Source of the DNA: Torpedo marmorata
Lineage: Eukaryota
Assembly: GCA_977017645.1 (NCBI GenBank)
Contig: OZ360247.1
Location: 16,864,001 to 16,928,000 of the forward strand
Direction: 5' to 3'
Length of the DNA: 64,000 nucleotides
Positions 8,940 to 62,500 of the stretch are shown here, piece after piece (position 1 is the first letter of the stretch; each line of letters starts with the position of its first letter). Under the pieces are notes generated by a model, which saw only the letters and a list, made by a program, of their open reading frames with translations, had not been told where the DNA came from and did not search any database. A program made the translations under genes and the position numbers.

Positions 8940-9583
8940 AACACAATGGTGGAGAAACTCAGCTGGTCAAACAATGTACTTTACATAGCAAAGATAAAGA
9001 TAAATAACCAACGTTTCGGGCTTGAGCCCTTCATCAAGGTATGAAAAAATGTCAGCAGGCACCTGAATAAAATGGTAGGGGGAGGGGCAGGGAGAAGAGC
9101 ATGATCCCAAAGGCAGGAGGTAATAGGTGGATAAGGGAGGGAGGGCACACCAGCAAGCAGGGGGAGGGATGGCTCTGTGAATGGAGAGGGAATGGGGTGG
9201 GGAGCTGGAGGAAAGAAGACAAAGGGAAGGGAGGGAGAACGGAGAGTAGGCTAGCAGAAACGGAGAAGTCGATGTTAATGCAATCCGGTTGGAGAGTGCC
9301 CAGACAGAAAATCAAGTGTTGCTCCTCCAATTTACGGGTGGTCTTAGTGGGATAGTACATGAGGCCATGGACAGACACGCGAGTATGGGAGTGGGACGCA
9401 GAGTTGAAATGGTTGGCCACTGCGAGATCCATGTCACTGCTGCAGACAAAGCGAAGGTGCTCAGCGAAGCGATCTCCCAGTCTGCGTCCAATCTCTCCGA
9501 TGTAGAGAAGGCCACAACGGGAGCACCGGATGCAGTGAAGCGTCACCACACATGCCCTCCATCTCTTCAATGAATCCCTTTCA
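8940..9583 (-). mobile_element. Penelope-like element, GIY-YIG endonuclease 3' part + terminal repeat
   Basis: CIRCSRCGLLYIGEIGRRLGDRFAEHLR...VANHFNS...KLEEQHLIF; TSD CTGTGTGCTG(C/T)ACA at 8926-8939 and 9584-9597. Confidence 0.88.
9007..9041 (-). ncRNA. Minimal type I hammerhead-ribozyme-like motif in a Penelope terminal repeat
   Basis: Minus strand acc-TTGATGA-A-GGGC(TCAA)GCCC-GAAA-CGTT-ggt: stem I acc/ggt, stem II GGGC/GCCC, core YUGANGA...GAAA with palindromic ACGU. Activity untested. Confidence 0.55.
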
Positions 9584-10056
9584 CTGTGTGCTGTACAGTT
9601 CCATGAAATGGAGTTGGTGTTTGATAAGATGCCACGAAATAGACTTGTCATTAGTGTGGAGAGTCACGGAATAAAGGGGCCAGTGGAAGTGTGGAAAGAA
9701 GATTGGCGAAGAGGGAGGAAACAGATCGGATGCTTTCAGACTGGAGGAAAGTGTGCAAGGAGTTCTTCTTACTAGACATGAATAATATCCAAATTCTAGA
9801 TGAGACCACAGTTGGAAACACGGCAAGTTGTGCGATGGATGGAGGAACAAGCGGGGAAGGTTCAGAGGGACAGAGGCCAAAGGCAGGCGGATGGGACCAG
9901 CTGAGAGCACGTCTCAGTCATCCTGTTCCCATGCTGAGTGACTGAGGTAGAGACATGCTGGTGGAAAGGGCAGAGGATAAGGGTTAATGCTGAGAAATAT
10001 GAGGCGTTACATTTGCTGGGAAGAATGAGAAAAGGCAATGTGAACAAGAGGCGCCA

Positions 10057-10480
10057 ATAGGAGGTAAAGATATATTACCGACGTTTCGGGCCTGAGCCCT
10101 CCTTGAAGAGGATGGCATTAACATCTACTTCCCCGGTTTCTGTTAAACCACACCCCCCCTTCTACCCCCTGTTGCCGTTCTCCCAGCTCTGTCTCTTTCT
10201 CTCTCTCTCTCTCTCTTCCCTTTTCCCTCTGTCTCCTTTCACAGAGCCAAAATCAATTCTCACCTTTCATCGTATCGAATTAATACCTTTTGGCTGTTGG
10301 TCTGGACTCCTCCCCCTCCCATTCTTCAGATGTGTTTTTTGCTGAAGAAGGGCTTCAGGCCCGAAACATCGTTAATATACGTATCTTTCCCTCCTATGGA
10401 CGCTGCGAGACCAGCTGAGTTCCTCCAGCATGTCTGTGTGTTTTTACTACAATGACAGTGTCGGCAGACTTCCGTGTTCC
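10057..10480 (+). mobile_element. Penelope-like 3' end with short inverted terminal-repeat piece
   Basis: Inverted aggaggtaaagatat...cgtttcgggcctgagccct segment, then a DGINI.FPGF coding end and terminal repeat containing CTGAAGA...GAAA at 10342-10366. Confidence 0.7.
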
Positions 10481-12325: not shown

Positions 12326-12419
12326 GATCTCCCGCAACTCGGTGAGTTACCCAGTCCCATTCACATGCCCTTTGGATTTTCAATGCCGACAAGGAGTTTA
12401 CAAGGGCGCAGTTTTCCCT

Positions 12420-12920
12420 TTGTTTCCCTCTTCCCTCTGAGTGCAGCCACGGTGTGGGTGTGAGTTCACACAGAGCCTCCCCATTCCCTCTTCCCCCTGA
12501 GTGCAGCCACGGTGTGGGTGTGGGTTGGCACAGAGCCTCCCCATTCCCTCTTCCCCCTGAGTGCAGCCACGGTGTGGGTGTGGGTTGACACAGAGCCTCC
12601 CCATTCCCTCTTCCCCCTGAGTGCAGCCACGGTGTGGGTGTGGGTTGACACAGAGCCTCCCCATTCCCTCTTCCCTCTGAGTGCAGCCACGGTGTGGGTG
12701 TGGGTTCACACACAGCAGAACACCTCCCCATCCCCATTCCCTCTTCCCCCTGAGTGCAGCCACGGTGTGGGTGTGAGTTCACACAGAGCCTCCCCATTCC
12801 CTCTTCCCCCTGAGTGCAGCCACGGTGTGGGTGTGGGTTGACACTGAGCAAAACACCTCCTCATTCCCCATTCCCTCTTCCCCCAAGTGCAGCCATGGTG
12901 TGGGTGTGGGTTCACACAGA
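12420..12920. repeat. 60-bp minisatellite
   Basis: Unit ccattccctcttccccctgagtgcagccacggtgtgggtgtgggttgacacagagcctcc, about 8 copies. Confidence 0.95.
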
Positions 12921-13640
12921 GAGAACGCCTTAAAATCACAGAAATGCTGGAGGAACTCAACCGGTCTCGCAGAACATCTCCCCAGCGCAGAAAGCAAACA
13001 CACAACCTGCTGCCTCAGAATTCCGCGTGAGAGCAAACTACTCATCTCAAACAAATTATGAAAAACTTTGGAATAATTTAATATTTATCGCGAAACCAAT
13101 TCATCTCTGGGCTTTGAGACATCCCGTGAGATTGGTGAGAAGGAGCTTTATGTAGAGGGGAAGCTGAGCTGCTTTTTATTAGGCAAAGCAATTAATTCCA
13201 GTCAAGCGTTGTCAGTATCAGGATGCTCCTTCCTTTGAGAAGCGTGTTCACGATCTGCTTGTGCTGAAGTAGAATTGCTGACAAAATAATAATTCATATG
13301 ACAGACAGTGCATAATACACTGCTGAACTCTGCAATGAGCTTGCAATTAAGATTTGTTACCTACTATTGTCCTCTCCACAGAACTGCAGGACTGTCTCGG
13401 CAAAGTTCTGTCTCTGAATGAGTGTGAAGTGTGGAGATGGTGGTCAGTGTGATCCCTGAGGAAGGAACCCTTTCCCAAGCCAGTCACTGGTTGTCAAAGA
13501 TCTCATCCTTGGATTCAAATGCCACTGTAACCCATGGCTCCTCCCTTATCACAGTATCAGCCCCTACATCCCTCTCTGAGAAGGTAATACCCACTTCCCC
13601 TACTCCCCTCCTGATTGCTGCGACCCCTTCCAACCCCAGT

Positions 13641-13950
13641 ACATAAGAACATAAGAAATAGGAGCAGGAGTAGGCCATCCGGCCCGTCGAGCCTGCTCTG
13701 CTGTTCAATGAGATCATGGCTGATCTGACGATCTCCACCTACCTGCCTTTTCCCCATATCCCTTAATTCCCCTACTTTGTAAAAATCTATCCAACCTTGT
13801 CTTAAATATATTTACTGAGGTCGCCTCCACTACTTCAATGGGCAGCGAATTCCATAGATTCACCGCCCTCTGGGAAAAGCAGTTCCTCCTCATCTGCATC
13901 CTAAATCTACTACCCTGGATCTTGAGGCTATGTCCCCAGGTTCTAGTACT
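13641..13950 (-). mobile_element. CR1 LINE 3' end
   Basis: acataagaacataagaa tail; minus strand RRNCFSQRAVNLWNSLP. Confidence 0.85.
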
Positions 13951-16361: not shown

Positions 16362-17380
16362 CTATAACACATAAAACACAAGACAACTATACAACTGTAT
16401 TAAAATGTTGCCATCCCCATCAATGATGGAGTGTACACCCCGCGGTGCCCAGCGCTCAAACCGCCCGATCTCGGAGTTCCGGCCCTTGGTCGACCCCCTG
16501 GTGTACTCCTGACACAGCAGAAGATTGCCCACATCCCACCACAGCCGCAGGGAGCAGAATTCCTCCCGCTGCCCCCTCCAGGTGGTCCAGAACTCCCTGA
16601 ACGAATCCCGGAATCGGTTGTCCTCCAGCAGCCGGTTGTTAAAATGCCAATACGCGGACGCCACCCGCGGGCAGGACGGAGTGAACTCCGCCCAGACGAG
16701 CTGGTGGTCCGAGCACATCACCGGCTGCATGGAGGCAGCCGACACCCAGGAGACATGCGCTCTGGAGATATACAATCGGTCAATTCGCGAGCCTCCCCCT
16801 CCTCCATCCCTCCTCGAGTAAGCAAAGGAGTCCGGGTGGAGGTTCCGCCAAACATCGACCATATCGAAGGAACCCACTAGCTCCCTCAGCAGCCTCACCG
16901 AGGCTCAGCAAGACCGAGGGCCAGAACGATCCCTGTCCTCGACGGTGCAGTTAAAATCACCCCCGAGGATAACACATTCGCCCTGGCTAAAAGAAGCCAG
17001 TAGGGCGGACACATCTTGAAACAGGCACGCCTGCGTCGGGCCGGGCTCAGGGGCATAAACGTTGAAAAGGTGCAACGGTACGCCATCCTGGCGCACGGCC
17101 AGATGGAGCAGACGGCCAGGCACCAGCTCCTGAACCGTTAGGATCTCGGGTTGGAAGGTCGAGGCCAACAAAATAGCCACCCCGCTCGAAGTGGAGCTCA
17201 GGTGACTCATGTATACACCCCCGCGCCACTCCAGGAGCCAGGTGGATTCGTCTCCTGGACCGGTGCGGGTCTCCTGCAGGAAACTCACCGCATATCTCCC
17301 ACTCCTAAGGACCGAGAGCTGGTAAAACCTGAGGAGAGACCACCTACCGCCGTTGATGTTCAGGCGATGGTAATCTTCAT
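16362..17380 (-). pseudogene. Tx1 ORF2 endonuclease domain, frameshifted and truncated
   Basis: ORFs 16905-17390 and 16362-16898 carry APE motifs; no RT motifs are present. Confidence 0.85.
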
Positions 17381-18133
17381 GACAAGTCACTGGAGACTCC
17401 GTCGCCAGAGCCCTGGGTAGAGGGAGAAGAGCTCCTTGCAGAGCCTCCCCTCGCTATAACTGCCGGCAGCAAGGCCTGCAGGAGTGACTTGAAATTGCGC
17501 CGCTCATTCCTGGTCAATTCTGACTCCTTCCTCGTCCTTTTAAGTATGTTATAAATGGACTGAGCAACCCCAGGGAGATCTGACCAGCGGGTGGTAGCCA
17601 ACTGGGCTTTATTCTGTCTCCCCCGGGTGTCCTCCAGGAACCCCCTCACCTCCCCCACAGTGACGACCGTGGATCCAGAACTGGGGACAAAGAGGCCTGC
17701 CAGCTCTGCTTCAAAGGAGTCCTCCTCGCTGTATCCCACATCTTTGTCCTCCTCCGGGCAAGCACCCCCACTGGCCGACATGCCCTCTCCTGTCTGTGTG
17801 GCAGCGACCAAGGGAGGCCCTGACGCCCCTTGATCCAGGACCCCAGGCGCGGCAGGGCTTGTGCCCCCTACACCACCACTTCCCAGTACAGACGACTCAC
17901 AGACCATCCTTGAGTCCGAACGAAGGACACGTATTGTTGAGTCGTGCCCGCCTCCACACCCTGGTCACCCATCTTCACAGAGTGGACCGGTGACCCATGA
18001 ACTGAGCGGACTGGTTACCCAGGGGCCATCTGTCCCTCGACAGGACCCCTTGCCTCGATAGAGGCCACCAACTGGGATACCACCCCACCAGGCGACCCTC
18101 CTCCATCAGGTAACCCCTGGATTCTGGGGCTAT

Positions 18134-19417
18134 CTACCTCACCGGGCGTCGCGCACTCTGGGTTCGTAACCACACCAGAGGGTAGGTCCCCTCCCTCCCG
18201 CTCAGCGGAATCCCCCACCGACTCCGGATATGTTTGCTCAGGAAATGCAGCCCAGTTGGAGGGAAAATCACCACAACAGGGCCACCCTCTAGCTCCGAGA
18301 AGACACTCTCCGCGCATGTGACCTTTACCGGGGGTAAATCCCCTTCCTCAGGTTCCCCCTTTCCCTCTTCTGCGGACACGTGTCTCCTGCGCTTTGTCCC
18401 ACCTACTTTCTGAGGCACGGAGACTTCCATCTCTGAGGAATCCTCACCCTCTGGCACCCCATCACCCTCCCCGACTCCCACAGGCCCCTGTTGACCCCCA
18501 GAGACTATCGGGTCCTCTGGGTCGGGCCTGGAGGAAACCGCCGACTCCTGCTCCTCCAGAGGAGGGGCCTGGAGGTGTTTCGTCTTCCTCCGTGCCTTCC
18601 TCCCCTTTGCAGGAGTCCACACCTCCCCACCATCCGGCCCACGCTCTTCCCCAATGCCCGTTGCCCCCACCGCAGGAGGGACATCTACCCCGGGGGGAGG
18701 AACAGCTGGAGGGGGGACAGCAGAAGAAGGGCCAGCTGCGCCTCCTTGCACCGTCGAGGTGGAGGCAACAGCCCGCCGGTTAGGGCAATCCCTCCGAATG
18801 TGCCCATACCGCTTGCATTCCCGGCACCTCGGACGCCCCGTGGCCCAGTACACGGGATAAGTACTCCCCTCCACGTCCACCTGGAACTGCCCCTCAGTAT
18901 CCCCTCCCCGCGCCAACTGCATAAAAACGAGCCTTTTAAAGCCATACAATGACTTATAGCCAGGTACGGCAGGCTTACGCAGCATCGGGGTGATATCCGA
19001 TTTTATCTCCCCCAGAGATCGCAGGTGAGGGAGAATGGCTGTATCAGGAATATGGGGATACACGGCAGACAGGACCACCTTCTGCACGCGGGCCATCACT
19101 GGCTCCACCGGTATGAAGAGCCCTCCCACCGACAGCCCCTTACTCAGGGCCAGGGACACCTCTTTAGTGGACCGCAAGAAAAACATTGTCTTCCCGTGAA
19201 TTTTATCTACCGCGACAATACCCTCCTTCCCACCTAGAGTCTGAGACAGAGCTTTTAAACCGCCTTCCAGACCGATGAACGGAGGTATATTACATTGTAC
19301 GGCATTTTCCAAAGTCATTAATCTGAAGGGTGACACCTTTGCAGGAACCCCACCTCCAGGAGCTGCAACTGCTGTGTAGGTCCGAGGGGCCGCCATCTTA
19401 GAGCTGCAGCTCGCCAT
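18134..19417 (-). pseudogene. Tx1 ORF1 (RNA-binding protein with CCHC zinc knuckle), frameshifted downstream
   Basis: 427-aa ORF with CRECKRYGHIRRDC knuckle; a likely C-terminal continuation lies in other frames (to ~17377). Confidence 0.85.
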
Positions 19418-20446
19418 GATGAAAGTCCTACGCAGTCAGTAATTATCACACCTGCTGATATGAAACACTGTCCTTCTACCAGCAGAGAACACAATCAGTT
19501 TTCCAAAAGTTTAGCAGTGCAGGGAAGGGAGTATGGTGGGAGTTTCCACAGGAATGTCTGTGCACTGATGACTGCAACGCTCTTCTTCTCGAGCGCAGGG
19601 AAAATGTCCTCCTCCGAGTCAGCCCGATTCTTCTGCAGCCTCACGAGTCCCAGGAGCCGTCGATGATCTTCGTCCCCCAGTCGTCCTAGGCGAAGGTCCT
19701 CGGTTGGGAGTGGGCTTTCCGATGATAACGACCCAACTCCCACTGAAATCCAGAAATGGCTTTGGCGATCTGCCAGCCACTGCTGCTCCCACAGCACTCA
19801 GGCACGGTCAAAGACCTTGCAGTACAAAATCTTCTTTCTTCCTCCGAAAACGACCACCGCTGGGATGAGAATGCGCTCCCACACTTTTCAGCGACCTCTG
19901 CACTTGCACTTATCAATTTTGAAAACCATAAATTTTTGGTCGACGATAGAGCTCACGCAGTACCGCCGCTCCCACAGTGCGGCACTCCCTCAGTACTGCC
20001 TCTCCCACAGTGCGGCACTCCCTCAGTACTGCCCCTCCCACAGTGCAACCCTCTCTCAGGTCTGCCCCTCCCATAGACATATATTTCGAGCGACTGCTGA
20101 ATTTGACTATCGTTCTACTGCAGTTAGCAATCAAGTTAACGCACTTGCTATGATGTGGGAAGAACAGCAGCCAGCATGTGGGCTCTCTGGTGAGGATTGC
20201 ACGTGCAGTGCACATTCGTGAAGGAAGCAGGAGGAGTCGTCCATGACTTCTCCAGAATAACCGCTGAATTCAAAAGTCTCAAAAACCTGTGAGCCTGATG
20301 TTTGAGACAAACTTCAAAGGATGAACCAGCACCAGCTGCAAATGCACGATTGGCTGCACGTCTGCTGCATCTGGTGCGGAATTGGACTGACACCTGACAG
20401 CAGTTCTGAGGGAGCGTCACACTGTGCGAGGGGCAGTTATGAGGGT

Positions 20447-21060
20447 GTGCTGCACTGGCAGAAGGACAGTACAGAGAGCACTGCACTGGCAGAGCGGCAG
20501 TACAGAGAGCACTGCACTGGCAGAGGGGCAGTACAGAGAGCACTGCACTGGCAGAGGGGCAGTACAGAGAGCACTGCACTGGCAGAGCGGCAGTACAGAG
20601 AGCACTGCACTGGCAGAGGGGCAGTACAGAGAGCACTGCACTGGCAGAGGGGCAGTACAGAGAGCACTGCACTGGCAGAGGGGCAGTACAGAGAGCACTG
20701 CACTGGCAGAGGGGCAGTACAGAGAGCACTGCACTGGCAGAGGGGCAGTACAGAGAGCACTGCACTGGCAGAGGGGCAGTACAGAGAGCACTGCACTGGC
20801 ATAGGGGCAGTACAGAGAGCACTGCACTGGCAGAGGCACAGTACAGAGAGCACTGCACTGGCAGAGGGGCAGTACAGAGAGCACTGCACTGGCATAGGGG
20901 CAGTACAGAGAGCACTGCACTGGCAGAGGCACAGTACAGAGAGCACTGCACTGGCAGAGGCACAGTACAGAGAGCACTGCACTGGCAGAGGGGCAGTACA
21001 GAGAGCACTGCACTGGCAGAGGGGCAGTACAGAGAGCACTGCACTGGCAGAGCGGCAGTT
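20447..21060. repeat. 31-bp minisatellite CAGTACAGAGAGCACTGCACTGGCAGAGGGG
   Basis: About 20 near-identical copies. Confidence 0.95.
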
Positions 21061-21068
21061 ATGAGGGT

Positions 21069-21324
21069 AACAGAGTGAAACATAAAAGTCTGCAGACACT
21101 GTGATTGTAGTAAAAACACACCGAAATGCTGGTGGAACTCAGCCGGTCTTTTCAGCATCTATAGGAGACAAAGATATATTGCCGTCATTTCGGGCTTGAG
21201 CCCTTCTTCAAGGAAACAGAAACTGAGTCCTTGAAGAAGGGCTCAGGTCAGAAACATTGGCAATATACCTTTGTCTCTTACAGACGCTGAAAAGTCCGGC
21301 TGAGTTCCTCCAGCATTTCTGTGT
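21069..21324. mobile_element. Fold-back Penelope terminal-repeat insertion
   Basis: Inverted arms; flanking direct repeat GCAGTTATGAGGGT at 21055-21068 and 21325-21338. Confidence 0.75.
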
Positions 21325-23284
21325 GCAGTTATGAGGGTGTTCTGCACTGGCAGAGGTAGAGTTATGAGGGTGTTCTGCACTGTTGAAGGAATATCCTTTT
21401 GACAAGATGTGAAATTGACCGGTTTGAAGTTGAAGGTTGAAAGACCCCATGACTGATACAGGGTGAAGAGCCATTTCATGTCCATTCCTAAGGCCCTGAA
21501 ACCAATTAAGTTTAAAACAAAAGGATCACCCACACGGGTGGGTCTGAGTGGCACAATGTCTAAGGGGAAAGGTTGACATGAACTGTTTCACTCTGCACAG
21601 TCAATGTGAAACTCGCAGGTGACTCCCAGCCACCTCTGTTTCAATTCCACGTTCTTGGTTTAACCATTACCACTAAGTGAAGTTAGAGACCCAGACAGGG
21701 TTTTACGACATGCTGAGCATTCTGGGCCTTGTTTTGTTAGCCCACATCAATGGGGTTCCTTCGATACAAATTCTCAGCTGTGACAGTGAGGTTTGAACCT
21801 TTGTCTCTGCATGCCCTTGATTCTGGGTGGTGCCAGCAGTCCACCCACAAGCCTCTACTTGTGCTTGTTAATTATTGGAGGTGAAGACAGAAATTCCATC
21901 TGACCAATGGCCAAGACTGATTGGTCATGGGAAGGTGGCACAGGTGAGGATGGGCGGATTGGATGACCAATAGCAAGAGGCTAGCTGACATGGGTCAACT
22001 GATGGACTCTTCAGGAATTTCAAAGAGTTTAACAGTTTGCATTTGGTTTGTGCATTTTGCATTCCACTTTGGGGCCAGGGCATATTACAGGCAACAAGGT
22101 ACTTTATTAGCAGGAAACAATCTGCTGGAGGAACTCAGCAGGTCGAGCAGCATCAGTGGGAGTACCTCCATCAGATAGTTTTTATTTCTAGTTTGCAGCA
22201 TCTGCAGTCTCCTCTGTCTCTGAGGTACTTTATGAAACATCACCACTTTGGCAAAGTCAGACACACACCAGTCAATTTGTGCACAGCAGCCTTCCACCAA
22301 CAGCACTGGGGGTTCACAGACCCCAGCCCACCTGGTCCTCCTGCACACCAGCTGAGTGACAACCTCCATCATCTCATCGCTAACTCACTTTCCTTGTCTT
22401 AACAAACAAAAAACTGCAGATGATAGAAATCCGAGTTAAAAACAGAGAAGGCCGGGTATACTCAGCTAATCAGGCAGAGCCTGGGGTGAGAAACATTGAC
22501 TGCTTCTCTTTACACCATTGCTGCTGCACCTGCTGAGGATTTCCAACCTTCTCTGTCTTTATTTCAGATTTCCAGCCTCTGCCGTCCTTTATTTTTATTC
22601 CGCGTTCATGGTTTAACTTTGTCCCGTGTTTGGAGGACAGTAAATCGGGTGAGCAGCCCTGAGGTTAGGAGGCAAGCAGCTGACCTGCCTGATTTATGGC
22701 AGTTCCATTTACTCGTTCCTGGATTCACCCCCATCTGATGTGTTTTGAAGTTCAGTGATTTGACGTTTGGCGTTTTCTAAAGTGAAACATTTTGCTGAAT
22801 TTTGACATTTTGCTGCATACTATTGCACTGCAAGGGGCTCTCCCCACGCTGTGTTGGAACAAACCATCAGTGTAGCTGCTGCATTCACTCCTGGAAGGGA
22901 TATTTGCCTGCGGCACAGAGCTCCCAAAATCCAGGCACTAGTCTACTCCCTGGCACCTGAGGTGCCTTCCTCAGCTCACTGTTAGTCAGAAGCCTCTGCA
23001 GGTACCTTTTCCTTCTGGAGAGGCCTTTGCCACCATCCCCTTCCATCACTGTAGCACCTACTCATTCCATGTCAACACTCCCCAGGAACTGGAAGAATGC
23101 TTTATGCGTGTGCGTGTGTGGGGCGGGGGGGGGGGGGGTCCTGACCTTTAAAAGTCTTCTTCCTGAGGTCAGAGCTCTGACGAAAAGTCTGTGATGAAAT
23201 CAATGTCCAAATCAAACTAAATCTCTGCTGCTGGCACTTGATCCATATCCTTCCACCGCTTCATATTCATTTGTCTATCCAGAA

Positions 23285-26639: not shown

Positions 26640-28125
26640 AGAACAGAACATAGAACAGTACAGTCCCTTCAGCCCACAATGTTGTGCCGACCTTTGTAAA
26701 CCTACTCTACAACAATCTAATTTTTCCCTATCTCACACCCATAACACTCTATTTCCTTAAATCCTTGTGCCTATCTAAGAGTCTTTTGAGTGGCCCAAAT
26801 GTACCAGCCTCCACCACCATCCCCAGCAATGCATTCCAGGCACCCACCACTCTCTGAGTAAAAGACTTACCTCTGACATCTCCCCTAAATTTTACACCAC
26901 TCACCATAAACAGATGTCCCCTGTTTGCTATTTTTGCCCCAGTAAAAAGGTTCTCCACCCTATCTAAGCACCTCGTAATCTTATATACCGTATTTGACGG
27001 CATATAGGACCCACTGGCATATAGGACCACCCCTCCCCCCCCCCCATTTTTAGCTTGAGATTTCAGGAAAAATTTGTTTTAGTGTATTTACCTTCATAGC
27101 AGCAACACATCCACCTGCCCGCCGCACACCGAGGCTCAGGCTGCTTCCCCCCCCCCCTCCACCACCGTCCAAATGCTAATTGATTGACAGGCGCACCGGG
27201 ACCCGCGAGGGTGGGAGGGAGATAAGCCAGGACAACGGGCAGGGCCCAGGCCCACCGTCGCGGGGAGCAGATGATCGATCGCTTGCTTTGAGGGGAGCGC
27301 CGGTGATCAGGCTCCACGCTGAGCCATTGTTCGACGCACACGGCTCCCCGAACAGATTGAATGAGGCGCGGGGGCAGGTGGCAGTGAGCGAGCGACATGT
27401 TGAGCTGAGCTTGACAGGCCGCTCGCTCACTGTCACCCGCCCCCGCGCCTCATTCAATTTGCTCGGGGGTTCGTGCTCGTCTAACAAAGCCTGATCATCG
27501 AGGCCCAGCGCTCCCCTCAAAGCACTGTGGGAGAGAGCGAGCGGGAGGGAGAGAGCGAGCGGGCGGGAGGGAGAGAGCGAGCGGGCAGGAGGGAGAGAGC
27601 GGGCGGGCGGGAAGGAAGGAGAGAGTGAGCGGCGGCGGCGACACCGGAAAGCACGGGCCACCCAAGGGAAGGTGGTCCGCGAATCTGCGGGCCCGTTTCT
27701 TGGACAGCCGCAACACCTCCGCGGGCTTCTTGAAGCTGGGTGAGTAGTTTGAGCGCTTTCCTCCTGTCGCCATCTGGCGGCACAAAAATGTCACCTTCGC
27801 GTATAAGACCCGGGGTGGTTTTTAAGGCGATTTTTTGGGAAAAAAGGGGGGGTCTTATATGCTGTCAAATACGGTACATCACTTCACATTTATCCAGATT
27901 GAACTCCACCTGCCACTTCTCTGCCCGGCTCTGCATCCTGTCTATATCCTGTGACAACCTTCTACACCATCCAGAACACCTCCAACCTTCGTGTCATCTG
28001 CAAACTTACTGACCCACCCTCCACTTCTTCATCCAAGTCATTTTTAAAAATCACAAAGAGCAGGGGTCCCAGAACAGATCCCTGCAGAACGGCACTAGTC
28101 ACCGACCTCCAGGCAGAATACATTG
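26640..28125 (-). mobile_element. CR1 LINE pieces flanking a MITE
   Basis: agaacatagaac tail at ~26645; minus-strand FRGDVRGKSFTQRVVGAWNAL; RT-region piece at 27877-28125. Confidence 0.75.
26988..27874. mobile_element. Tc1/mariner-superfamily (Tc2/pogo-like) MITE
   Basis: TIRs CCGTATTTGACGGCATATAGGACCC / GGGTCTTATATGCTGTCAAATACGG, flanked by TA at 26986-87 and 27875-76; CpG-rich interior. Confidence 0.85.
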
Positions 28126-28420: not shown

Positions 28421-28666
28421 GAGTAAAACATCAAAGTCTGCAGACACCGTGGTTGAAGTAAAAACACAAAGCTGGAGAAACTCAGCAGGTCAAACAGTGT
28501 CCTTTATACAGCAAAGATAAAGATACATAACCAACATTTTGGGCTTGAGCCCTTCATCAAGGTATATGAAGGGCTCAAGCCTGAAACGTTGGTTATGTAT
28601 CTTTATCTTTGCTGCATAAAGTACACTGTTTGACCTGCTGAGTTTCTCCAGCATCTTGTTTTTGCT
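28421..28666. mobile_element. Fold-back Penelope terminal-repeat insertion
   Basis: About 100-bp inverted arms centred near 28562; perfect 13-bp TSD ACCCAGATGTTAG at 28408-28420 and 28667-28679. Confidence 0.85.
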
Positions 28667-30769
28667 ACCCAGATGTTAGTCCATATCTGGAGCAAGCTGC
28701 CAGATGAAGCTACAGAATGGGTTCAATGTCTTACAAAGAAAACCTTAACATTTTAATATTTATACTGATAGATATATCTATATGTCATATCTAAGATGAT
28801 GATGCTCCATATTCACCAAGACATCAGGAAATCCCTCCCCTGGTCTTTACTTCGTAGCTTCAGTCCATTTGAGAGGCCACGTGGTGCAATGGTTTCAACG
28901 TCTTATCCCAAGGATAGAACGTCTGATGGTGCAATACTCACTGAGGATTGTACTGGAGAGTGGGTCTGGATTATCCACTCACGTTGCTGGAGTGAAGCTT
29001 GAATCCAGCACCCCAAACACTCATATGAGTCAGCAGTGGGTCACGGATGTTTACATGGATCCCGGGGTTAAGACAACACTCTGGGTCATTGGGATGGTTC
29101 ACCTGTGAGTGCACTAAGGATCAGAGAGAAACCTGTTAATATGAGTAGGCCATTTGGCCCTTTGAATCTCCGCCATTGTTCAGTGATTATCTATTTATTT
29201 ATTTATTTTAATTTTAACAATATTGCACAGCAGAAAGCCCTTCCAGCCCATGTAACCTGTGCTGCCCAATTAACCTACCGACCCCGCACGTTTTGGAGGG
29301 TGGGAGAAAACCCATGCAGTCACGGGGACAAACTCCGGATTCGAACCCGGGTTGCTGTTGTTGTAAGAGCGTTACTGATCCACAATCTCAATACCATGTT
29401 CCCATTATCTCCCTATACCCTTTGGTACTTCAAACTGTGTTGGAGAAATGTCTGGAAGCAGAGATTTAATTCCACTCAACCAGTCCCAGTTAGTGAAGCT
29501 GAAACTCTGGCTCCATGCTTCAGATTAACACCCAGAATATCCACGTAGATGTAGATGACCCTCCCTTTCATTGAATGGACCATTATTCCTTATTTTTCCT
29601 TGAAGAATAAGGAATAATGCTTATTCCTTGAAGAAGGACTCAGGCCCGAAATATCTTTTCTTTTTATGGATGCTGAAAGACCGGCTGAGTTTCTCCAGCA
29701 TTTCAGTGTGTTTTTAGTACAATCACAGTGCCTGCAGACTTTCGTGTTTCACTCATTATTATCCATTAAACATTTCTCCCCCACCAAACCCCCCCTCAGC
29801 ACCTGGGGTAAAGAAGATCCCAGCTGTGGAAAGAAGATGCACATTGGCTTAGCCAGGTGGAGAATATTTGAAGCGTTTCCCCAGGGGTCAAAGTTAAAGC
29901 TACAAAACAATCCTGCCAGTCAGTTAACCAGCAGAGGGTCCTTCCTCAAGGGTCATGGAGACTGAGCGCAATGTGGAGTCGAGGAGGAAGACCATGGTCT
30001 CCATGAGCAGTGGGGTAGATGGGTGCCCTCCTGCCCTCCGGTTGCTTCTGCCCTTTATTCCCTTTTTTAAAAAATATTTTATTTAAAATGTTTAATCACA
30101 CGATAATACATGTTTATAAATTTCAGAAACCCCTTATTCCCTTGAGGAAGTAGATGAAGGTGTGGGGCAGGGCTGCCTGGTACAGGAACCTCCATATCCC
30201 GAACAGGCTGGCAAAGAAGTGGGCACTTATCACAGTCCCAACACACCTCAGATCTTGCAGGAAGTAACACGACACAATGACTGGAATGAAGCAGCAGACT
30301 CGCTGGGAGCCTCTGAACACATTGTAGAATATTAAACTGTCTTCAGTCTCTGCAGATGTCAGTGTTCAATACCAGTTAGTGGTCATTACCTTCTGAGCAC
30401 TGCCTATTGTTTCCATAATGTATATTTATTCTCTCTCCTCTTCTCTCTTGTGTCCTAACCATGGACCTCTTAACGCATTGGTGGTTACACCAAGAGAACC
30501 TGAGCTGGGAGGTGTCCTCATCTCCTCTGCATGTCCCCAGTTGTCACTTGTTACTCTCCCAAAGGCTTTGAGAGGGGGGGGGGGGGGTTGTGACACGAGC
30601 TTCAGCAGAGTCATCTCATTTCCTCACTCTCTCCTCAAAACAATGATTAAAATGTGAACTTGAAGAGTCATCAGTAGTGGTCCCAGTGTCCTGTTCCACC
30701 CTATCTCCACACCCTACCCTCTCCCGACACCACCTCCTCTTCTCATTTGGCTAGCTCACTGCTGCAGTG

Positions 30770-31477: not shown

Positions 31478-31561
31478 AGCAATTTGAAGACATCCCACTT
31501 GTTCCAGCTCAGGACCTGTCCAGCATACTGAAGCAAGGCTATCTGGAGAAAAAGCGCAGAG
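31478..31561 (+). CDS. SKAP1: SKAP-family adaptor, internal exon (pre-PH linker and PH strand 1)
   Basis: Polypyrimidine tract + tttcag acceptor, G|gtatgg donor; 84 bp, phase 1-1; encodes (E)QFEDIPLVPAQDLSSILKQGYLEKKRR(D), matching the SKAP AQDL..LKxGYLEK motif. Missed by the ORF track. Confidence 0.9.
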
Positions 31562-42565: not shown

Positions 42566-42683
42566 GCAGGCAGTGATGTGGAGGAGGAGGTTTGTGCTTG
42601 ATCGTGAACCATTGGTGCAGCTCTCGCGAACTCACTGTCCCGACGAGAACGCTGACAGGTGTTGCACTTCTCTCCTCTCCCAG

Positions 42684-43147: not shown

Positions 43148-43266
43148 ATAAACAGCAGAGAGGCGCGTTCTACGTTTGCGATGCCTACCTGGTTCAAAAT
43201 CTCCGGAAAGATGCCAAGAAAAATTCCTGCTTTGAAGTCCTCAGTTCAGACAAGAAGGTGTATCAG
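43148..43266 (+). CDS. SKAP1: SKAP-family adaptor, PH domain exon
   Basis: tttcttgcag acceptor, CAG|gtaag donor; 119 bp, phase 1-0; (D)KQQRGAFYVCDAYLVQNLRKDAKKNSCFEVLSSDKKVYQ. Confidence 0.93.
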
Positions 43267-48057: not shown

Positions 48058-48139
48058 CAATCCTGCCTCACCATGCTCCCTGATTACAGCCCCTCAGCAC
48101 CATTTTCGATCACTATCCCCATCTCGCTGATGCCGTCAC

Positions 48140-49035
48140 CACCGTTCGGGAAACCGAACAGTCCTTCCAAGTGAAGCCACACTTCACCTGTGAATCTGCA
48201 GGGTCATTTACTGCGACCGGTGCTCCCGTTGTGGTCTCCTCTACATCAGGGAGACTGGACGCAGACTGGGGGATCGCTTTGTTGAGCACCTTTGCTCTGT
48301 CCACAGCAACAGCAAGGACCTCTCAGTGGCCAACCACTTCAATTCAACACTCCATTATGACACTGAGATTCTGTCCATGGCCTCGTGTACTGCCAAGTTG
48401 AGGCCACTTGTAAATTAGAGAAAATGCAACTTGTATTCTGTCTCGGCAGTTTCCAACCAGATGACATCAATATCGACCTCCAATTTTTGTTAACCCTCCA
48501 CCCTGGTCTCATTCCTCTGTTTCCCTTCCTCCAGCTCCCCACCCCCTTCCCTTCCTTCTCCTATCAGAGAGCTATCTTTCAAGTCAAGGCAAGTCAAGTT
48601 TATTGTCATCTGAGTGTACAAGTACAACCCGACGAAACAGCGTTCTCCGGTCCTCGGTGCAAAACATGCAGACACACAACTAGACATAAAGACACATACA
48701 GACAAACAATACATATGCAGGACAAGTATTTCATCTATACAAATAAATAAATAAATATTTTTCTTTAGCCTTCTCCCCTATCACCTCAGCTTCTTTCTCT
48801 CCTTCCCCTTCCCACCTGTATCCACCTATCACCTGCTAGCCTGTGCTCCTCACCCTTTCCACCACTCCCCCCTCTCCCAACCTTCCTATTTGGTTGTCTG
48901 CCTGATTATCGGCACTCCTGATGAAGGGCTCAGGCCCGAAATGTCGACTAGTTTGTGCTTCCCGTGGATGCTGGGTGAACTGCTGAGTTTCTCCAGTTTG
49001 TGTATTGCACTCAACCCCAACATCTGCAGACTGCT
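48140..49035 (+). mobile_element. Penelope-like GIY-YIG fragment + terminal repeat, with nested Rex tail (~48590-48760, -)
   Basis: SFQVKPHFTCES, CGLLYI.ETGRRLGDRF.EHL, KLEKMQLVFCLGSFQPDDINIDL; hammerhead-like core at 48918-48945. Confidence 0.85.
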
Positions 49036-49119: not shown

Positions 49120-49183
49120 TTTACTGCTCCGAGTGTGCGGGAAGCCAAGGACTGGGTGGATCACATCTCCTTTGTGCTGAAAG
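49120..49183 (+). CDS. SKAP1: SKAP-family adaptor, PH C-terminal helix exon
   Basis: atttcctag acceptor, AAG|gtaaa donor; 64 bp, phase 0-1; FTAPSVREAKDWVDHISFVLK(D), similar to SKAP1 [22 protein letters not shown]. Confidence 0.93.
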
Positions 49184-52100
49184 GTAAACTCCCTCCTGTT
49201 ATGGTGGACATCTGTGGGGAGGGAGAGGCCGATGGATCGGTGCAGCTCTTGCCCGTGGTTAAGGGAGTCTCGGCACCAGATCTGGGAGCCAGCTGTGTGC
49301 ACACAGGAACAGCAAAGTAACTCCTTTCCAACCATCTGGAGTGCATGAGAGAAACACTGAGAGCGCAACTAGATCTAACCTTCTTCAATACCTTTCCATG
49401 CTCACACAAGAATGGAAGAAAATAGGTGCCGGATAGGCCACAGCCCCTTGTGCCTGCCCCACCATCTAACATGATCATGGCTGCTGCCCCACAAGTCAAT
49501 TCCTTTTCTGTGCCGGTTCCTCATGACCTTAATCCCCCAATCTTTCAAAGACGTATCTATGGCCTCTTCTGATGATCCAGCCACCCCAACTCTCCAGGGT
49601 AGAGATTCACTATCCTCTGCAAGAAGGTGCTAATCAGCCAACATATAAAAAGACTCATCCCATCCCAGCCAGCACCCCTCCACCCACCCCCATCAGGCAA
49701 GAGATCACGAGCCACCACATTCAAGGGCAGATTTGTTCCCGCTGTTATCAAACTCCTGAATAAACCTCACTCTCATAAAAAGTTCCTGCCTTTGCTTTGC
49801 ACCAACTGGCCTCTCTCTGTGACTGTGTCTTACTTGCTGCATTATGTATGAGATATCTAGTTGTTCTGCTCGCAAAGCAAACTTTCTCACTGCACCTTGG
49901 TGCAGGTGACAGCAAACTTGAACTTGAATGTTGGGGCTGAGGTGAAAAACAGATGGAATCGGAAGGTGAAGTGGATCCGATAGTTGGAATGTGTGCAGAG
50001 ACAGTTGCTCCCCGACCTGTCTCTCCACCTCTAACACCTTCATTTGTCCAGTGTCTCCCCCTCGCTTTTCAGCTCAATATCTCCCCTTCACACCAGAGTC
50101 TTGATAAAGGGTCCCGACCCAAAATGTTGACTGTCCCGTTCTCTCCGGGTGCCGTCTGACCTTCTGTCCCTCCAACCTCTTTGTTTTCAGCATCCGCGGT
50201 TTCTTCTGTTTTTTCTGTGGTCTTCAGAATGAGGCCATTCAGCCCAAAGAACCAGCCTCCCCCCACATCTTCATCTTGTCCTATCCGTCCCCTGTGAATG
50301 CATTTATATGACTCGCTCAGCCACTCTCAATTGGGGTGAGATAAATGTTTTATTATTATACTCGTATTGTACATTCTAAGCTCTGCTATCTACACGTATA
50401 ATAACTGTGCTGCAAAATGGCGCCACACTGCTCCCACAGGTGGGAGGATGAATTGTAGCCTGATGGGCGAATTACTCCAATCACGTGCCCGGAGAGGTTG
50501 GGATGGGGAAAGCTGTGAGGACGCTGCGTTCGTGTGCACCCCCTCCTCTGCCCTCTCCCACTTCTCACCCTTGGAGAAGAGCTGTCAATCTGGGCGATAT
50601 CCAGTGGCATGTGTAAAAGTGCTTGGAATTAAGGATGTGTTTGATGACCTGAACTCAGGGTAGATTTTAATAAATAGCAATATTTCCATCTGTCAGCACA
50701 ATTTAAGGAAGTTTTAAATCACTCTTATCTGCATTCTTTGGTTCCTTAAATAAATTGTAATTTGACTTACTTTTTAAATCACATTTACTTTCCAATTAAA
50801 TTTTAAATGAACACTGTCCATCTCTGCTGGAAAACCCTACTGAGGTGAATATTAGTCTGCGCTGAAAATTTCAGTTTCTAATTAAACATTGTTCCATTGA
50901 TTAGGGTAATAAAAGTTTGAAGTTTGCCAGTAATTAAAAACAATTTCTGCTGGAAGCACCTCGAACCACTGCACCTGAAATGTGTTTCCTTCCCCCATGT
51001 TTTCCACTGAAGCCACATAGCCTCGGCGATCTTGAGATGGCAAGTACAGATCACAGCCACCAGTCCTGTTCCCGACCCCCGCTATTGGCCATGGGGGCCG
51101 TGGGTACACTGGCAATTGGTCAAAAATAAGTCAGTCTCTGCTATAGCAACTGAGCCCAGTTGTGTTCCCCACCTTCAAGCTTGGAGGAGAATAAAGATTA
51201 CATGCTGAGATGAATGTGAATTTCTGTGCCAATAACCTTTGTGTTACAGCTTATCACCCTCCCCCTCCCCTCAGCTGGCTCACCTGTCTGTCATCCTTCG
51301 CCCCTCCTCAATGCACCGATCACCTCCAAGCCCCTGCCTCACCCCTCCCCCTCTCTTCTTTACACCAGCCATCTTCCCTCTCCCCTCTCAGTCTTGATGT
51401 AGGATCTTGATCCGAAACGTTGACAATTCCTTTCACCTCCCCATCCCCCCATAGATGTGGCTCGACCTGCTGAGTTCCTCCAATCAAAATCAATCTGCCG
51501 GAGGAACTCCGTGTGTCGAGCAGCGTCTGCGGGTGAAAGGAATTGTCAACCTTTTCTTGACCCCCCACCCCCCCGACTTCCTCCAGCAATCTGTTTGTTG
51601 CTCCATATTTTTGAAGCCTTCTCATTTCATTTTCAGGATGTTCAAGGTCCAGTTCAAAGTAAGTGAGGTTCCTCTGAAGCATTATAGCTGCTTCATGTGA
51701 GAACTGTGGCAGTCAGCTGATGAAGTGATGCTCATGACCACAAAATCCATTGTAGTAATGATGTGGAGAGCAAAATGCCGTCGCGGCAGTTAGTGCTGCT
51801 GCCTCACAGCTGCAAGTGATCGAGGTCGACCTTCATCTTCGGTGCTGCCTATGTGGAGTTTGCATGTTCACTCTGTGACTGCGTGGGTTCCCACTGGGTG
51901 CTCTGTTGGGTAGGTTAATTAGCCACAGTAAATTACCCCTGGTGTTGGTAAATGGCAAAATGGGCATGTGTGAGAGAGAAGGGTGGGGGGGGTGGCACTG
52001 ATGGGATTACTACCCTGGGTATCTTCAAGAGGCAAGTGTCTCTGGGCCAGAATATCAGAGGGTTCAAGTACAAGTTTATTGTCATCTGATTGTACATATA

Positions 52101-56334: not shown

Positions 56335-56553
56335 ATATGAATTCCAACTTCATTCCCCTGGAAGAGGAAGAGGAGGTGGAGGAGGAGGATGAGGATCAAG
56401 ACAATGGGCTGGTAATGTATAAAGAGGAAGCCCTGCAGGAGGAAACATACGATGATGTGGACACAGCTTCTGCAGATCAAAGACCCTCCATGAGTCACCC
56501 ACCTCCCAACGTGGACAGGAACCAGGATGACGAGATTTATGAAGAACTGCCAG
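56335..56553 (+). CDS. SKAP1: SKAP-family adaptor, acidic linker exon with tyrosine motifs
   Basis: ctccacag acceptor, CAG|gtagg donor; 219 bp, phase 1-1; (D)MNSNFIPLEEEEE...EETYDDVD...DDEIYEELP, in frame with the previous exon. Confidence 0.92.
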
Positions 56554-59365: not shown

Positions 59366-59579
59366 GAGTAAAGACTGGCCTGACCAAGTTGGAGGGTGGA
59401 GGGTTTAGTGACTCCTGGTGAATGAGCAAAGGCTTCTGGTAAACAAGTAAAGACTGGCCTGACCAAGTTGGAGGGTGGCAGGTTTAGTGACTCCTGGTGA
59501 ATGAGTAAAGGCTTCTGGTAAATGGGTAAAGACTGGCCTGACCTGGTTGGAGGGTGGAGGGTTTAGTGACTCCTGGTGA
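59366..59579. repeat. 79-bp tandem repeat, about 2.7 copies
   Basis: gtaaagactggcctgacc... recurs at ~59368, ~59447 and ~59526. Confidence 0.9.
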
Positions 59580-62500
59580 CCCTGTGTCCGAGCTGTTGCT
59601 CCAGATGTTAGTCTTTATCTGCAGTCAGGAGACAAGAGGGAAGAGTTGCCTTCACTGTTCTCGTAAACAGTGCAGGGCATCTCCAGTGGATCCAGTCCCA
59701 TCTCCCCTTCGAATCGCCTCTCTAAACCCTGCTCATCCACTGGTTGCCGTTTGGAATGGCTGCGATTTTTTTTCCACTCATTTGGAATAATTTTGCTAAA
59801 AGTGCTTAATTGAATCGCCCGTGGGTTTCAGCTCTGTGCTTTATTACTTGCTGGAGTATGCAGTGGTGGAGAATGGTACAGGGCCTTTTATGCAATTTGG
59901 AAGGCAGTTTGTTGCAAAATAAATATAGATTTATGCCAACAAAAGGATTAAAGAAAGGTTTAAAGCCTTTACTCAGATCCGTATGCACAGTGTTCATCAT
60001 TATTAAGCCCTCTGGCTAGATTCTCAAATGCTGTACCCAGGCTGGATGCAGTCAGCTGGTAAATCAGATTTTGCTCTTGCCTGCTAATTCACTTCCATCA
60101 GGCGCTGCATTGTAAGAGCTTCTTTTCTCTCCGGATCGACAGTGGGGTGCACGTAAAGGTTCCACTGCTGCAAGCAGTTGAGGTGGAAGTTGAGCGGGAG
60201 ATTGTAAGCGTCTTCATAGGCCGTTTATGTGGTCTGCGAAGGCCAGCATTTCCAGCCCATCCAGAGGTGCCCTTGAGAGGGCGGTGGTGAGCCACTGTCG
60301 GGGATCGCTGCCATCTCTGCGCTGTTAGATCACAGGTGTTGACTCAGTGACAATGAAGGTGTTGGCCACAGGCTTCCAGGTCAGGGTGGTGTGCTACTTG
60401 GAGGAGAACCTTCCCCGATCCCCAAGGCAACTTTATTCAACCCTTGTGTTCTCTGAAACACTCTGAGGGTGGTGTGTCAACCATCTTATGCACAGTGAGA
60501 TCCCATCAACTCATCCATTTGAAATCATTCCAGTTGAGATCAAAATGCCAGGATCTTAACATGTCTGTTTTATTCATGAGTTGCTTTCATGCAGGACCAA
60601 CTCATAGTCTGCTGGAGGAACTCAGCGGGTCAAACAGCATCAGTGGGAGCAAAAGAATTGTTACGTTTTCAGGATAGAACCCTTCGTCAAGTCTTGATGA
60701 AGGATTTCCAGCCAAAAGCGTCGACCATTCTTTTGGCTGTTCGACCCACTGAGTTCCTCCAGCGGATTGTGCTGCAGTATCTGTTGTCACTCAGGCTTCA
60801 TTGCAGCTGTGTTGGAGGCTGATGACAAATCCTACTGGAGACAACAGAGAAGGAAAGAGGCAGGAATCTGGAAGCTTGGGGTTCTGCCCCCAAACCCATA
60901 CTTTGGCCTCACAGGTCATGCCAGCAAATATGTTGCAATAAAATATATGATAAAGCATCGAAAAAAGAAAATGAAAAGCAAAATACTGCAGAAGATGGAA
61001 ATCTGAAAAAGAGAAATGGTGGAAATGCTCAGTGTCCGTGGAGGGAGAAAACTAGATACTGATGAAAGGTCATTGACCTGAGATGTCAACTGTGTTTCCA
61101 GCATTCTTCTGTTTTTATACAAGAAATGCCAGTTTCACCTGGTAGTAATTTGTCAGAGGGGCTTAAAGTGAGAGCGTCGAGACCCTTTAGGTGGGAGCAG
61201 CTGGTTCACAGTGGTTGTAGGACTGTGGGCAGTACGATTAGCCTAGCGGTTAGCGCGATGCTATTACAGAGCCAGCGACCTGGGTTCGAATCCAGCGCTG
61301 TCTGTATGGAGTTTGTTCGTTTTTCCCCATGTCTGCATGGGTTTCCTCCGGGTGCTCCGGTTTCCTCCCACCCTTCAAAACGTACGGAGCTGTAGGTTAA
61401 TTTGGGTGTAATTCGACAGCACGGGTTTAAATGGCTGGAATTGGCTTCTACTCGATAAGATTCAAACCCCAAACTGCCTTCGTTCACCATTAATGTTCCT
61501 GGCATCACTCATTTCGCAATGGGATGTCTTTCCAAGGCCCCATTTGCTCTGACAAATGATGACGAGATCCCACAGATTACATTGATACAGAGTTATTTCC
61601 AGTTCTCGTCAGTATTTACACCCTGCCCCACCAACCAACATCAACAAAACGGAATAACAGGTCATTGCTGCTTGTGGGATCTTGCTGTGTGTAAATTAAC
61701 AACCATGTTTAACAATCAGCAGAAAATGTTTCACGGCGTCCCACTGGCCTGTCCTGAGCAGGTGACAGGTGTGAGGTCAATGGTTAGCCTGGTTTGTTCC
61801 CCCCGCCCCTCCCCCAATGTCTTTGGCCAGTCACCAACATTCCAAAAAGGGAGCATAGTATTTCTGAAGGTCCAGCTTTCTGTCCATGAGCAAGGACTGG
61901 CTTGGTTCAGAGTGACCTGTGCACCTTTGCCCAGCCTGCTGTCAGCTGCAGGATGAAACTTCAGTAGAAAGAGTCTTTTACCTTGACCCTCCCCTATTTT
62001 AGTTGCTCTGTTGTTGCTGCACATGCCTTTGGCAGTCTTAGCCTTGAGATCTGGGAGCTCTCTGTCTTAAACCCTTCACCCTCCCATTCTACAATGTTCT
62101 TTGAAACCTCACACTTTGGTCCTGGTTTAATACCAGTTCCTTAATTCTCCTTCGGACTGTTGTTTTGTTAAATGTACCACATGAATTCACTGAGAAACAC
62201 AAAGGCTGGAATCTCGAGCAAAAAACCGCTTGAGGAACTCAGCAGGTCAGACAGCATCGATGGGTAGAAATGGTCAGTCAACGTCTCTAGTCTGGGCCCT
62301 TTGGATGCTGTCTGACCTGCTGAGTTCCTCCTGCATTTCTTTGTACATGGATTCACTGAGTTGTTGTTGAATCGTACGCCCATCCTGGTGCCTGTGTCAC
62401 GAACACTGGACCTGAAAGGGCAAGTTGAAAGAAATAACTTTGCCCAGGAAGGAAAAGCAGAACTTGTGGCCTTCGTGGGCCTTCGTGGGCCCCATCACTT

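Follow-up and report, generated by a model that had tools for sequence, protein, structure and literature searches.

Minimal hammerhead motifs in the terminal repeats of an abundant Penelope-type element around a SKAP-family gene of Torpedo marmorata

The repeats of the window analysed here, a whole stretch of 64,000 nucleotides of Torpedo marmorata (contig OZ360247.1, positions 16,864,001 to 16,928,000), are, judging by their sequence, terminal pieces of a Penelope-type element (PLE) of very high abundance and carry the known minimal type I hammerhead motif. Both the motif and its host element were already known. We consider it probable that the hammerhead acts as a weak, presumably protein-assisted dimer linking the two repeats within longer-than-unit RNA of the element itself, and that the solo copies of the window are decaying leftovers unlikely to cut the SKAP pre-mRNA.

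A strict motif pattern gave 93,024 matches across the 6.2-Gb genome and its reversed-pattern control none, while a semi-strict pattern matched 6 times within the window and only once in total over 50 dinucleotide shuffles. Therefore, the motif exceeds chance. The initial annotation had read six places in the window as minimal hammerhead cores in Penelope terminal repeats, and the pLTR position, the covarying stems and the palindromic ACGU bear this reading out. All six were found at, or a few bases from, the positions it gave, and a downstream anchor motif matched 24 times in the window, which means more copies than it had listed. Among the sequencing runs listed for the stretch there was none of RNA, and the single contig run (share 0.07) mainly covered the repeats; as such coverage shows neither ends nor strand, it is not counted as evidence. 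The Rfam search which it had proposed as a check returned no hammerhead family at E<=5 among the 21 matches listed for the window, a miss that would be expected for a hammerhead motif without stem III. The motifs and element remnants of the window are the following:

4682..4709, minus strand: decayed subfamily B motif (motif match)
8939..9540, minus strand: 5'-truncated Penelope-like element, a GIY-YIG remnant followed by a hammerhead-holding pLTR
9007..9040, minus strand: minimal hammerhead motif of subfamily A2 with unbroken core (U3·G8, extra A, 4-bp stem II, ACGU, GUU site), running antisense to SKAP
10342..10370, plus strand: decayed subfamily B-like motif with C3-G8, palindrome broken (ACAT), lacking stem I
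21117..21325, no strand assigned: palindrome formed by two subfamily B stubs lying head to head, each with a decayed core (inverted repeat I12, 84% over 103 nt)
28457..28666, no strand assigned: palindrome formed by two pLTR stubs lying head to head and meeting immediately 5' of the core (inverted repeat I10, 91% over 101 nt)
29628..29655, plus strand: decayed subfamily B motif (ATAT), lacking stem I
48133..48483, plus strand: piece of a Penelope-like element left from its GIY-YIG region, upstream of the 48918 motif (tblastn E 1e-28)
48916..48947, plus strand: motif 174 nt upstream of the 49120 exon, with an intact catalytic strand (C3-G8), ATGT as its palindrome and a stem I of 2 bp
50097..50132, plus strand: decayed subfamily C1 motif with U3-A8 core pair, G12A, ATGT and stem I AGUC/GACU
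51391..51424, plus strand: decayed subfamily C-like motif with U3·G8, A9U, stem I GUC/GAC and stem II GGAU/AUCC
60590..60766, no strand assigned: two subfamily C stubs lying head to head, each with a decayed core (motif matches)
61059..61087, plus strand: decayed motif with GAGA replacing GAAA, ATGT, lacking stem I

The individual copies of the window are often core-broken, unlike the six subfamily consensuses. In all six consensuses the core (C/U)UGAN(G/A)A ... GAAA is present with an extra nucleotide before stem II, G12, A13, A14 and the CpG-containing palindromic ACGU are retained without a loop III, and C or U occupies position 17; the palindrome is found in 2 of the 6 copies listed by the initial annotation. 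That several of these copies have core mismatches was correctly noted before, and actually five of the six have defects, the only unbroken core being that of 9007-9040 on the minus strand. The core strings given for them marked the right sites but left out an additional A that every copy has between A9 and stem II. Two details did not survive closer reading: the (C/T)GT variation is CpG decay and no feature of the family, and at 61059 a 5-bp stem closes a loop of 3 nt instead of the supposed 1 nt.

Regarding the stems, 56 copies were aligned on sequence only. In this alignment 87.9% of cells pair, and double-sided changes occupy 33 cells compared with 10.8 in the shuffles, none of 500 reaching the observed value and all slid controls being lower. 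Compensatory changes were C-G to U-A (12) and A-U to G-C (9) in stem I and C-G to U-A (8) in stem II, counts which rest on few subfamily events and not on independent sequences, and which are uncorrected for subfamily structure. The covarying stems claimed before hold between subfamilies, in stems I and II and in pair 3-8, but are not maintained copy by copy. This subfamily-level covariation points to selection for the RNA fold in active lineages.

The core was identical at 11 of 11 positions over the six consensuses against 3 of 20 positions downstream (hand count), a conservation that is inflated because the core itself served to register the copies. At CpG sites the single copies decay: in the older subfamilies 43 of 157 core CpG cells were mutated compared with 30 of 437 non-CpG cells, and cores were intact in 21 of 25 young copies but in only 11 of 70 others. 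The non-CpG core cells were also mutated less than the spacer cells (87 of 702, p 0.003). A purely neutral reading does not predict this difference, which the core registration bias and the mixing of subfamilies in the spacer may explain.

The core pair 3-8 is the U3·G8 wobble in around 98% of the strict matches (91,096 of 93,024). Watson-Crick pairs are seen in the C3-G8 and U3-A8 subfamilies. Among the first 100 of the 164 subfamily C matches, classified by hand, we counted 18 C-G, 39 U·G, 42 U-A and a single C·A (Fisher p 1.7e-4). The U3·G8 variant is already published, as one row (Saccoglossus 1) in Fig. S3 of PMC4209133; a literature search for its cleavage rate gave nothing direct, which does not imply absence from print. 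We also considered that U3 destabilises the misfolded monomer, and rejected this idea on 30 natural subfamily C copies, where the C-G, U·G and U-A classes overlap in energy.

Among the 20 loci with a long ORF, four (L032, L034, L039 and L048) are full-length pLTR-ORF-pLTR copies with the motif in each repeat, 3.85-4.1 kb apart. The main ORF begins around 178 nt downstream of the hammerhead core. The 1289-aa ORF matched RVT_1 (E 5e-6) as well as GIY-YIG (E 0.002), although neither match reached the Pfam cut-off. It has a Cys linker of the CX2-5CxxC type between the RT and the C-terminal GIY-YIG and, towards the N terminus, a long insert rich in Pro/Ala repeats. By its domain layout and this linker, which is defined in PMC8557442 and also found in Nematis, the element would be a Neptune-like Penelope. 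Pfam found neither RT nor GIY-YIG in 8 peptides of the window, and it is tblastn that links the window fragments to the element: 8939..9540 matches aa 1109-1201 of the L032 ORF at 79% (E 2e-39; blastn 76%).

The host gene of the window was recognised by its exons, of which we propose four:

31490..31561, plus strand: likely exon with approximate start, presumably the SKAP exon that begins the PH domain (sequence reading, motif search)
43148..43266, plus strand: PH-domain exon of the SKAP-family host gene (splice sites read in the sequence; phmmer)
49120..49183, plus strand: next likely exon, which we take to be the SKAP exon that ends the PH domain (AG/GT boundaries and reading frame)
56335..56553, plus strand: likely exon ending in an IYEELP tyrosine motif, presumably also of SKAP (sequence reading, motif search)

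With phmmer, the 43148..43266 peptide matched PDB 1u5e (SKAP2, E 1.8e-6) and 1u5d (SKAP55, E 1.3e-4). A motif search of the window and six neighbouring 10-kb stretches found neither the 5' exons nor the SH3 exons of SKAP, so that the copies at 9007, 10342 and 61059 may lie inside or outside the gene.

The insertion junctions were of two kinds. Short stubs begin around 5 nt upstream of the hammerhead core, and long copies extend beyond one unit with no boundary there, which fits uncut multimeric or religated circular templates. The 5' ends showed no clear peak at the cut site, where 60 junctions were counted, compared with 34 and 83 at two positions taken as controls (around 1.4-1.8-fold after a rough filter correction), and none of 64 long copies ended within 3 nt of it. 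Of the 3' ends of 30 copies, most lay within +102..+109 or +136..+144. Copies that extend beyond the core by over 400 nt made up 30 of 53 on the second pass and 18 of 30 on the first. As to what causes the peak 5 nt upstream of the core, AT-rich microhomology was rejected as its sole cause, because an equally AT-rich stretch after the cut site has no such peak, and RT stalling on structure is unlikely because RT would probably reach the 3' side of stem I first.

By nearest-neighbour energies, two misfolded monomers were favoured over the active-like dimer by 2-18 kcal/mol in every copy tested, and by 9.9 kcal/mol in a young full-length copy. The stability of the monomer lends no support, since none of 7 stretches folded as single strands was notably more stable than its shuffles (z -1.64 to +0.53). 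The published minimal PLE hammerheads are inactive as monomers and of low activity as dimers (PMC4209133), or they need the element's protein (PMC11167929). Self-cleavage would probably require two motifs paired within RNA of the element itself. The in vivo role of PLE hammerheads is unsettled (PMC8557442, PMC11167929). The fold could be conserved but catalytically dead in the dominant subfamilies, having a promoter-proximal or protein-binding role, with the elements spreading via uncut tandem read-through RNA. The prevalence of U3·G8 and the lack of a 5'-end peak at the cut site would agree with this, as would the Anolis ribozyme mutants that leave in vitro insertion unaffected, the lack of RNA-seq ends at the cut site in that system (PMC11167929) and the Naiad PLEs, which multiply without canonical hammerheads (PMC8557442). 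However, pair 3-8 remains pairable over the subfamilies (C-G, U·G or U-A, with C·A in 1 of 100), and the positions kept in the six consensuses, including the C or U of position 17, are constraints of a catalytic core rather than of a generic hairpin, so that we judge a dead fold unlikely. Protein coding as the source of the conservation is hardly credible: the frame does continue through the 3' motif in 3 of the 20 long-ORF loci, N7 being a third codon position there, but in 14 of the 20 the ORF stops around 195 nt short of this motif, and in the read-through frame the compensatory changes are not silent but replace amino acids.

It had also been suggested that plus-strand copies could cleave the intronic RNA of SKAP, and this was not supported, these copies being solo and CpG-decayed. 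Such copies would have to pair across the 49120 exon, and actually the 48918 copy keeps its catalytic strand with C3-G8, copies with GUU sites lie 1,183 nt and 2,476 nt from it, and stem III could form with one or two wobbles, the other stem I having 4 bp. However, in the pairings within 3 kb the catalytically intact half gets only a 2-bp stem I with either partner together with a wobble-containing stem III, and therefore intronic cleavage at this copy appears unlikely. Furthermore, the catalytic strand is broken in 5 of the 9 plus-strand copies examined, the CpG decay of the copies is ordinary, and neither special conservation nor a tandem arrangement was seen. An effect on SKAP, if true, would matter more than the motif itself, but with the evidence against it we regard it as very improbable.

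Compared with the minimal hammerheads of metazoan PLEs, in the parts available of Cervera and De la Peña 2014 (PMC4209133), the Torpedo motif is alike in its presence in both pLTRs, mostly solo and with opposite-strand pairs, in the extra nucleotide between 9 and 10.1, in G10.1-C11.1, in the short stem I and in the palindromic 15.2-16.2 without loop III; a U3-A8 variant is described there for Schistosoma, beside the Saccoglossus 1 row. It differs in its stem II, of 4 bp compared with 7-8 bp reported for Schistosoma, in having U3·G8 as the norm, and in its copy number, at least 93,024 against around 4,000 in coelacanth and 9,000 in Xenopus, although the descriptors differ. The examined part of Fig. 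S3 has no cartilaginous fish row, and a literature search combining Penelope, hammerhead and shark gave nothing direct, which again does not imply absence from print. The Poseidon element PAc of Anolis carolinensis (Frangieh et al. 2024, PMC11167929, in part) also has a pLTR hammerhead without ends at the cut site, templates read across that site and two internal RT start sites setting a 30-40-nt tail, which the two clusters of 3' ends in Torpedo resemble. However, PAc has C3-G8 and an ORF starting in stem II, whereas the Torpedo ORF starts well past the core and has the Neptune/Nematis-type Cys linker.

The Neptune-clade EN+ PLEs, as far as described in the available parts of PMC8557442 and PMC3846280, share the RT, the Cys linker and the C-terminal GIY-YIG, the 5'-truncated partial tandems, the head-to-head inverted repeats and an initiator-like pLTR sequence, reported for Adineta; the Pro/Ala-rich insert sets the Torpedo ORF apart. 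Finally, the non-LTR retrozymes of animals (bioRxiv 10.64898/2026.07.22.740005, in part), reported in one chondrichthyan, have a type I hammerhead derived from PLE pLTRs but form tandem arrays with a hammerhead per unit. We rejected this identity for the window copies, which are dispersed solo copies or head-to-head stubs, no tandem units with a complete hammerhead being found.

Our best explanation, the weak dimer in the element's own RNA, joins the observed anatomy, subfamily covariation, CpG decay and junction statistics to steps of transcription and RT start that we infer. Transcription would start around 5 nt upstream of the core, where an initiator-like sequence doubles as the 5' strand of stem I, and reverse transcription would initiate inside the RNA, downstream by around 105 or 140 nt. 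When it starts within the first repeat of a transcript that is uncut, it would give the 110-150-nt stubs and the head-to-head palindromes, and when it starts on multimeric or cut-and-religated circular RNA, the longer-than-unit copies. It is possible, although we propose it only tentatively, that the junctions of around 10^5 copies go back to templates of two classes, uncut transcripts starting at the 5' strand of stem I that become stubs and circles made by U3·G8 hammerhead cleavage and religation that become longer-than-unit copies, and that the path of pair 3-8 from C-G to U·G to U-A tunes ribozyme strength.

The value of the Torpedo copies is as test material: among them are intact elements of young age and natural variants with C3-G8, U3·G8 or U3-A8, and their junctions number in the tens of thousands. 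If the reading with two template classes were true, it would give genome-scale support to the proposed rolling-circle step of Penelope transposition.

The six hammerhead-like copies cited in the initial annotation (the 9007, 10342, 48918, 50101, 51394 and 61059 copies) were all found in the window, and in every one of them an additional A separates A9 from stem II. A semi-strict hammerhead pattern gave 6 matches in the window versus 1 in total over 50 dinucleotide shuffles; genome-wide (6.2 Gb), the strict pattern gave 93,024 matches versus 0 for the pattern read backwards. In the window, the Rfam check proposed for the motif gave 21 matches at E<=5, none of them to a hammerhead family. A conserved downstream motif, 20-45 nt 3' of the hammerhead, had 24 matches in the window, therefore the initial list covered only part of the copies. 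The motif (~20 nt, located 20-45 nt 3' of the cut site) is conserved across subfamilies as strongly as the hammerhead core and is able to form a small hairpin. It is a candidate RT-binding or promoter element, placed immediately 5' of the first RT start site.

Features of the window
8948-8968 (-), 10409-10429 (+), 48977-48997 (+) and 21 other places: ~20-nt downstream motif
21117-21325: head-to-head palindrome
28457-28666: head-to-head palindrome
60590-60766: head-to-head palindrome
16362-19435 (-): decayed non-LTR retrotransposon, ORF1-like frame, AP-endonuclease match (PF03372, E 2.5e-9)
1418-2089: tandem minisatellite, period about 20 nt
12418-12921: tandem minisatellite, period about 60 nt
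20295-21183: tandem minisatellite, period about 31 nt
40290-42630: tandem minisatellite, period about 18 nt
27312-27502: GC-rich inverted repeat, 95-nt arms, 79% complementary, miRNA-family matches sub-threshold only

The proposed Penelope origin held. In the window, the 9007 copy terminates a 600-nt remnant that includes the GIY-YIG region (E 2e-39), and the 48918 copy has another element remnant upstream of it (E 1e-28). The anatomy of the element was read from 20 genomic loci, selected because their open frames around the RT are long. In L032, L034, L039 and L048 the motif is present in both repeats, 3.85-4.1 kb apart, which flank one ORF. The 1289-aa ORF of L032 gave two Pfam matches that stayed below the cut-offs, RVT_1 at E 5e-6 and GIY-YIG at E 0.002, and a Cys-rich linker precedes its nuclease; such a linker is a mark of Neptune and Nematis (PMC8557442). 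The three head-to-head palindromes fit the inverted terminal-repeat (pLTR) layout of PMC3846280. The paired repeats of a locus were 97-99% identical in six of the eight loci with an in-register pair, thus most long copies likely come from one event. In the ORFs of L031-L037, a Pro/Ala-rich insert of variable repeat number separates the N terminus from the RT, which brings the ORFs to as much as about 1,300 aa. The usual ORF stop is read through in L032, L033, L042 and window 8967-9311 (-), where the frame crosses the 3' hammerhead.

Regarding the stems, we sampled 1,064 kb (the window and 100 stretches of 10 kb) with 143 downstream anchors, 95 of them with the 28-nt core in register; the 48 without it were excluded. 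The 95 cores fell into six subfamilies and 10 singletons. Once 7 further rows with a missing or shifted 5' half had been removed, the structure-blind alignment comprised 56 copies: 3 from the window and 53 of the 78 rows that were left, with most of the thinning in the young subfamily, whose copies are near-identical. The stem covariation claimed at the outset is present there: 87.9% of the cells were paired, two-sided changes affected 33 cells versus 10.8 in shuffles (0/500), tracing back to a few subfamily events, and all six slid controls were below the real register. By stem, these changes were C-G to U-A (12) and A-U to G-C (9) in stem I and C-G to U-A (8) in stem II. Counted by base pair, two-sided change (6 pairs) was within the shuffle range (50/500). 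By hand count, the positions identical across the six consensuses were 11/11 in the core versus 3/20 downstream, a comparison in which registering by the core favours the core.

The copies are decaying. Only 9007-9040 (-) has an unbroken core among the six cited copies, and intact cores were found in 21/25 young copies versus 11/70 others. In the older subfamilies, 43/157 CpG core cells were off consensus versus 30/437 non-CpG ones (p 3e-10). The latter mutated less than spacer cells (87/702, p 0.003), which may be explained by core-based copy choice and subfamily mixing.

C3 occurred in just 1,928 of the 93,024 strict matches, therefore about 98% carry the U3·G8 wobble at core pair 3-8. Among the first 100 of 164 subfamily C matches, classified by hand, this pair was C-G in 18, U·G in 39, U-A in 42 and C·A in 1 (7, 11, 11 and 1 by script on the first 30 of 164), a distribution that fits a compensatory path via the wobble. 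U3-A8 is an already known natural variant (PMC3088659, PMC4209133), and Fig. S3 of PMC4209133 has a Saccoglossus row with U3·G8; a literature search of limited reach found no measured U3·G8 rate.

Insertion junctions were counted from U3, with the cut site at +28. The 3' ends of 30 copies clustered at +102..+109 and +136..+144, forming a two-site tail. In the young subfamily, 5' ends were taken from 100 of 1,923 matches, which came down to 82 events once repeats and palindrome arms had been merged by hand. Internal deletions accounted for 11 of them; among the other 71, 37 started in -7..+2 and 3 no more than 2 nt past the cut site. Scripted counting of the first 30 rows gave 15 starts in -7..+2 (9 after merging) and 0 at +28. 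In genome-wide counts at single positions, -5 had 388 junctions and the cut site 60, with 34 and 83 at two control positions; by a rough pattern-filter correction, -5 exceeds both the controls and the cut site about 6-10-fold, the cut site itself being 1.4-1.8x the controls. Among the cut-site rows, many have recurrent flanks in common, as expected from inversions or deletions. The -5 site falls in sequence that doubles as the stem I 5' strand and is initiator-like. In addition, one hammerhead stub has been amplified inside a larger local tandem repeat (G000:C1:58.60-60.19 Mb, L173-L180), supplying 13 rows of the 5'-end set.

For long copies, an anchor near the ORF start was used; 92 of the first 93 of 2,066 matches were aligned, and 64 of the 93 extend into the ORF. 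Among these 64, 54 cross the cut site, 1 ends at -10..+3 and none ends within 3 nt of the cut site. Of the long copies in this set that reach U3, 30/53 continue for >400 nt further, versus 18/30 tail-ending copies (p 0.82).

Anatomy, covariation, decay and junction counts are the observed part of a mechanism in which the transcript would start about 5 nt before the core and the RT would initiate internally at either of two sites. The short pLTR stubs would come from RT starts in the first repeat of uncut RNA, and longer-than-unit copies would derive from a template whose junction is intact, whether an uncut multimer or a cleaved and religated circle, two sources that DNA alone cannot tell apart. 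Circles via dimer cleavage and religation are proposed in PMC4209133. For all copies tested, misfolded monomers were more stable than the active-like dimer, so the dimer likely needs a helper protein. Direct head-to-tail hammerhead pairs ~46-48 nt apart also occur (G000:C1:5814638-5814711 and C1:189548178), an arrangement expected to favour dimers in cis.

The initial annotation also suggested cleavage of SKAP intronic RNA. Exon 43148-43266 matches the PH domains of SKAP2 and SKAP55, and three further exons were deduced from reading frames and splice sites. The catalytic strand is intact in 4/9 + strand copies examined. Lying 174 nt 5' of the likely exon 49120..49183, the 48918 copy could pair with 50101 or 51394, with an active-half stem I of 2 bp and 1 or 2 wobbles in stem III. 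Published minimal PLE hammerheads are inactive as monomers and of low activity as dimers (PMC4209133), and that of Anolis requires the element's protein (PMC11167929). Because of the short stem I, the wobbles and these published properties, cleavage within SKAP introns is unlikely. The window motif is a real feature, already known in kind: a new member of the minimal hammerheads of Penelope-like elements.
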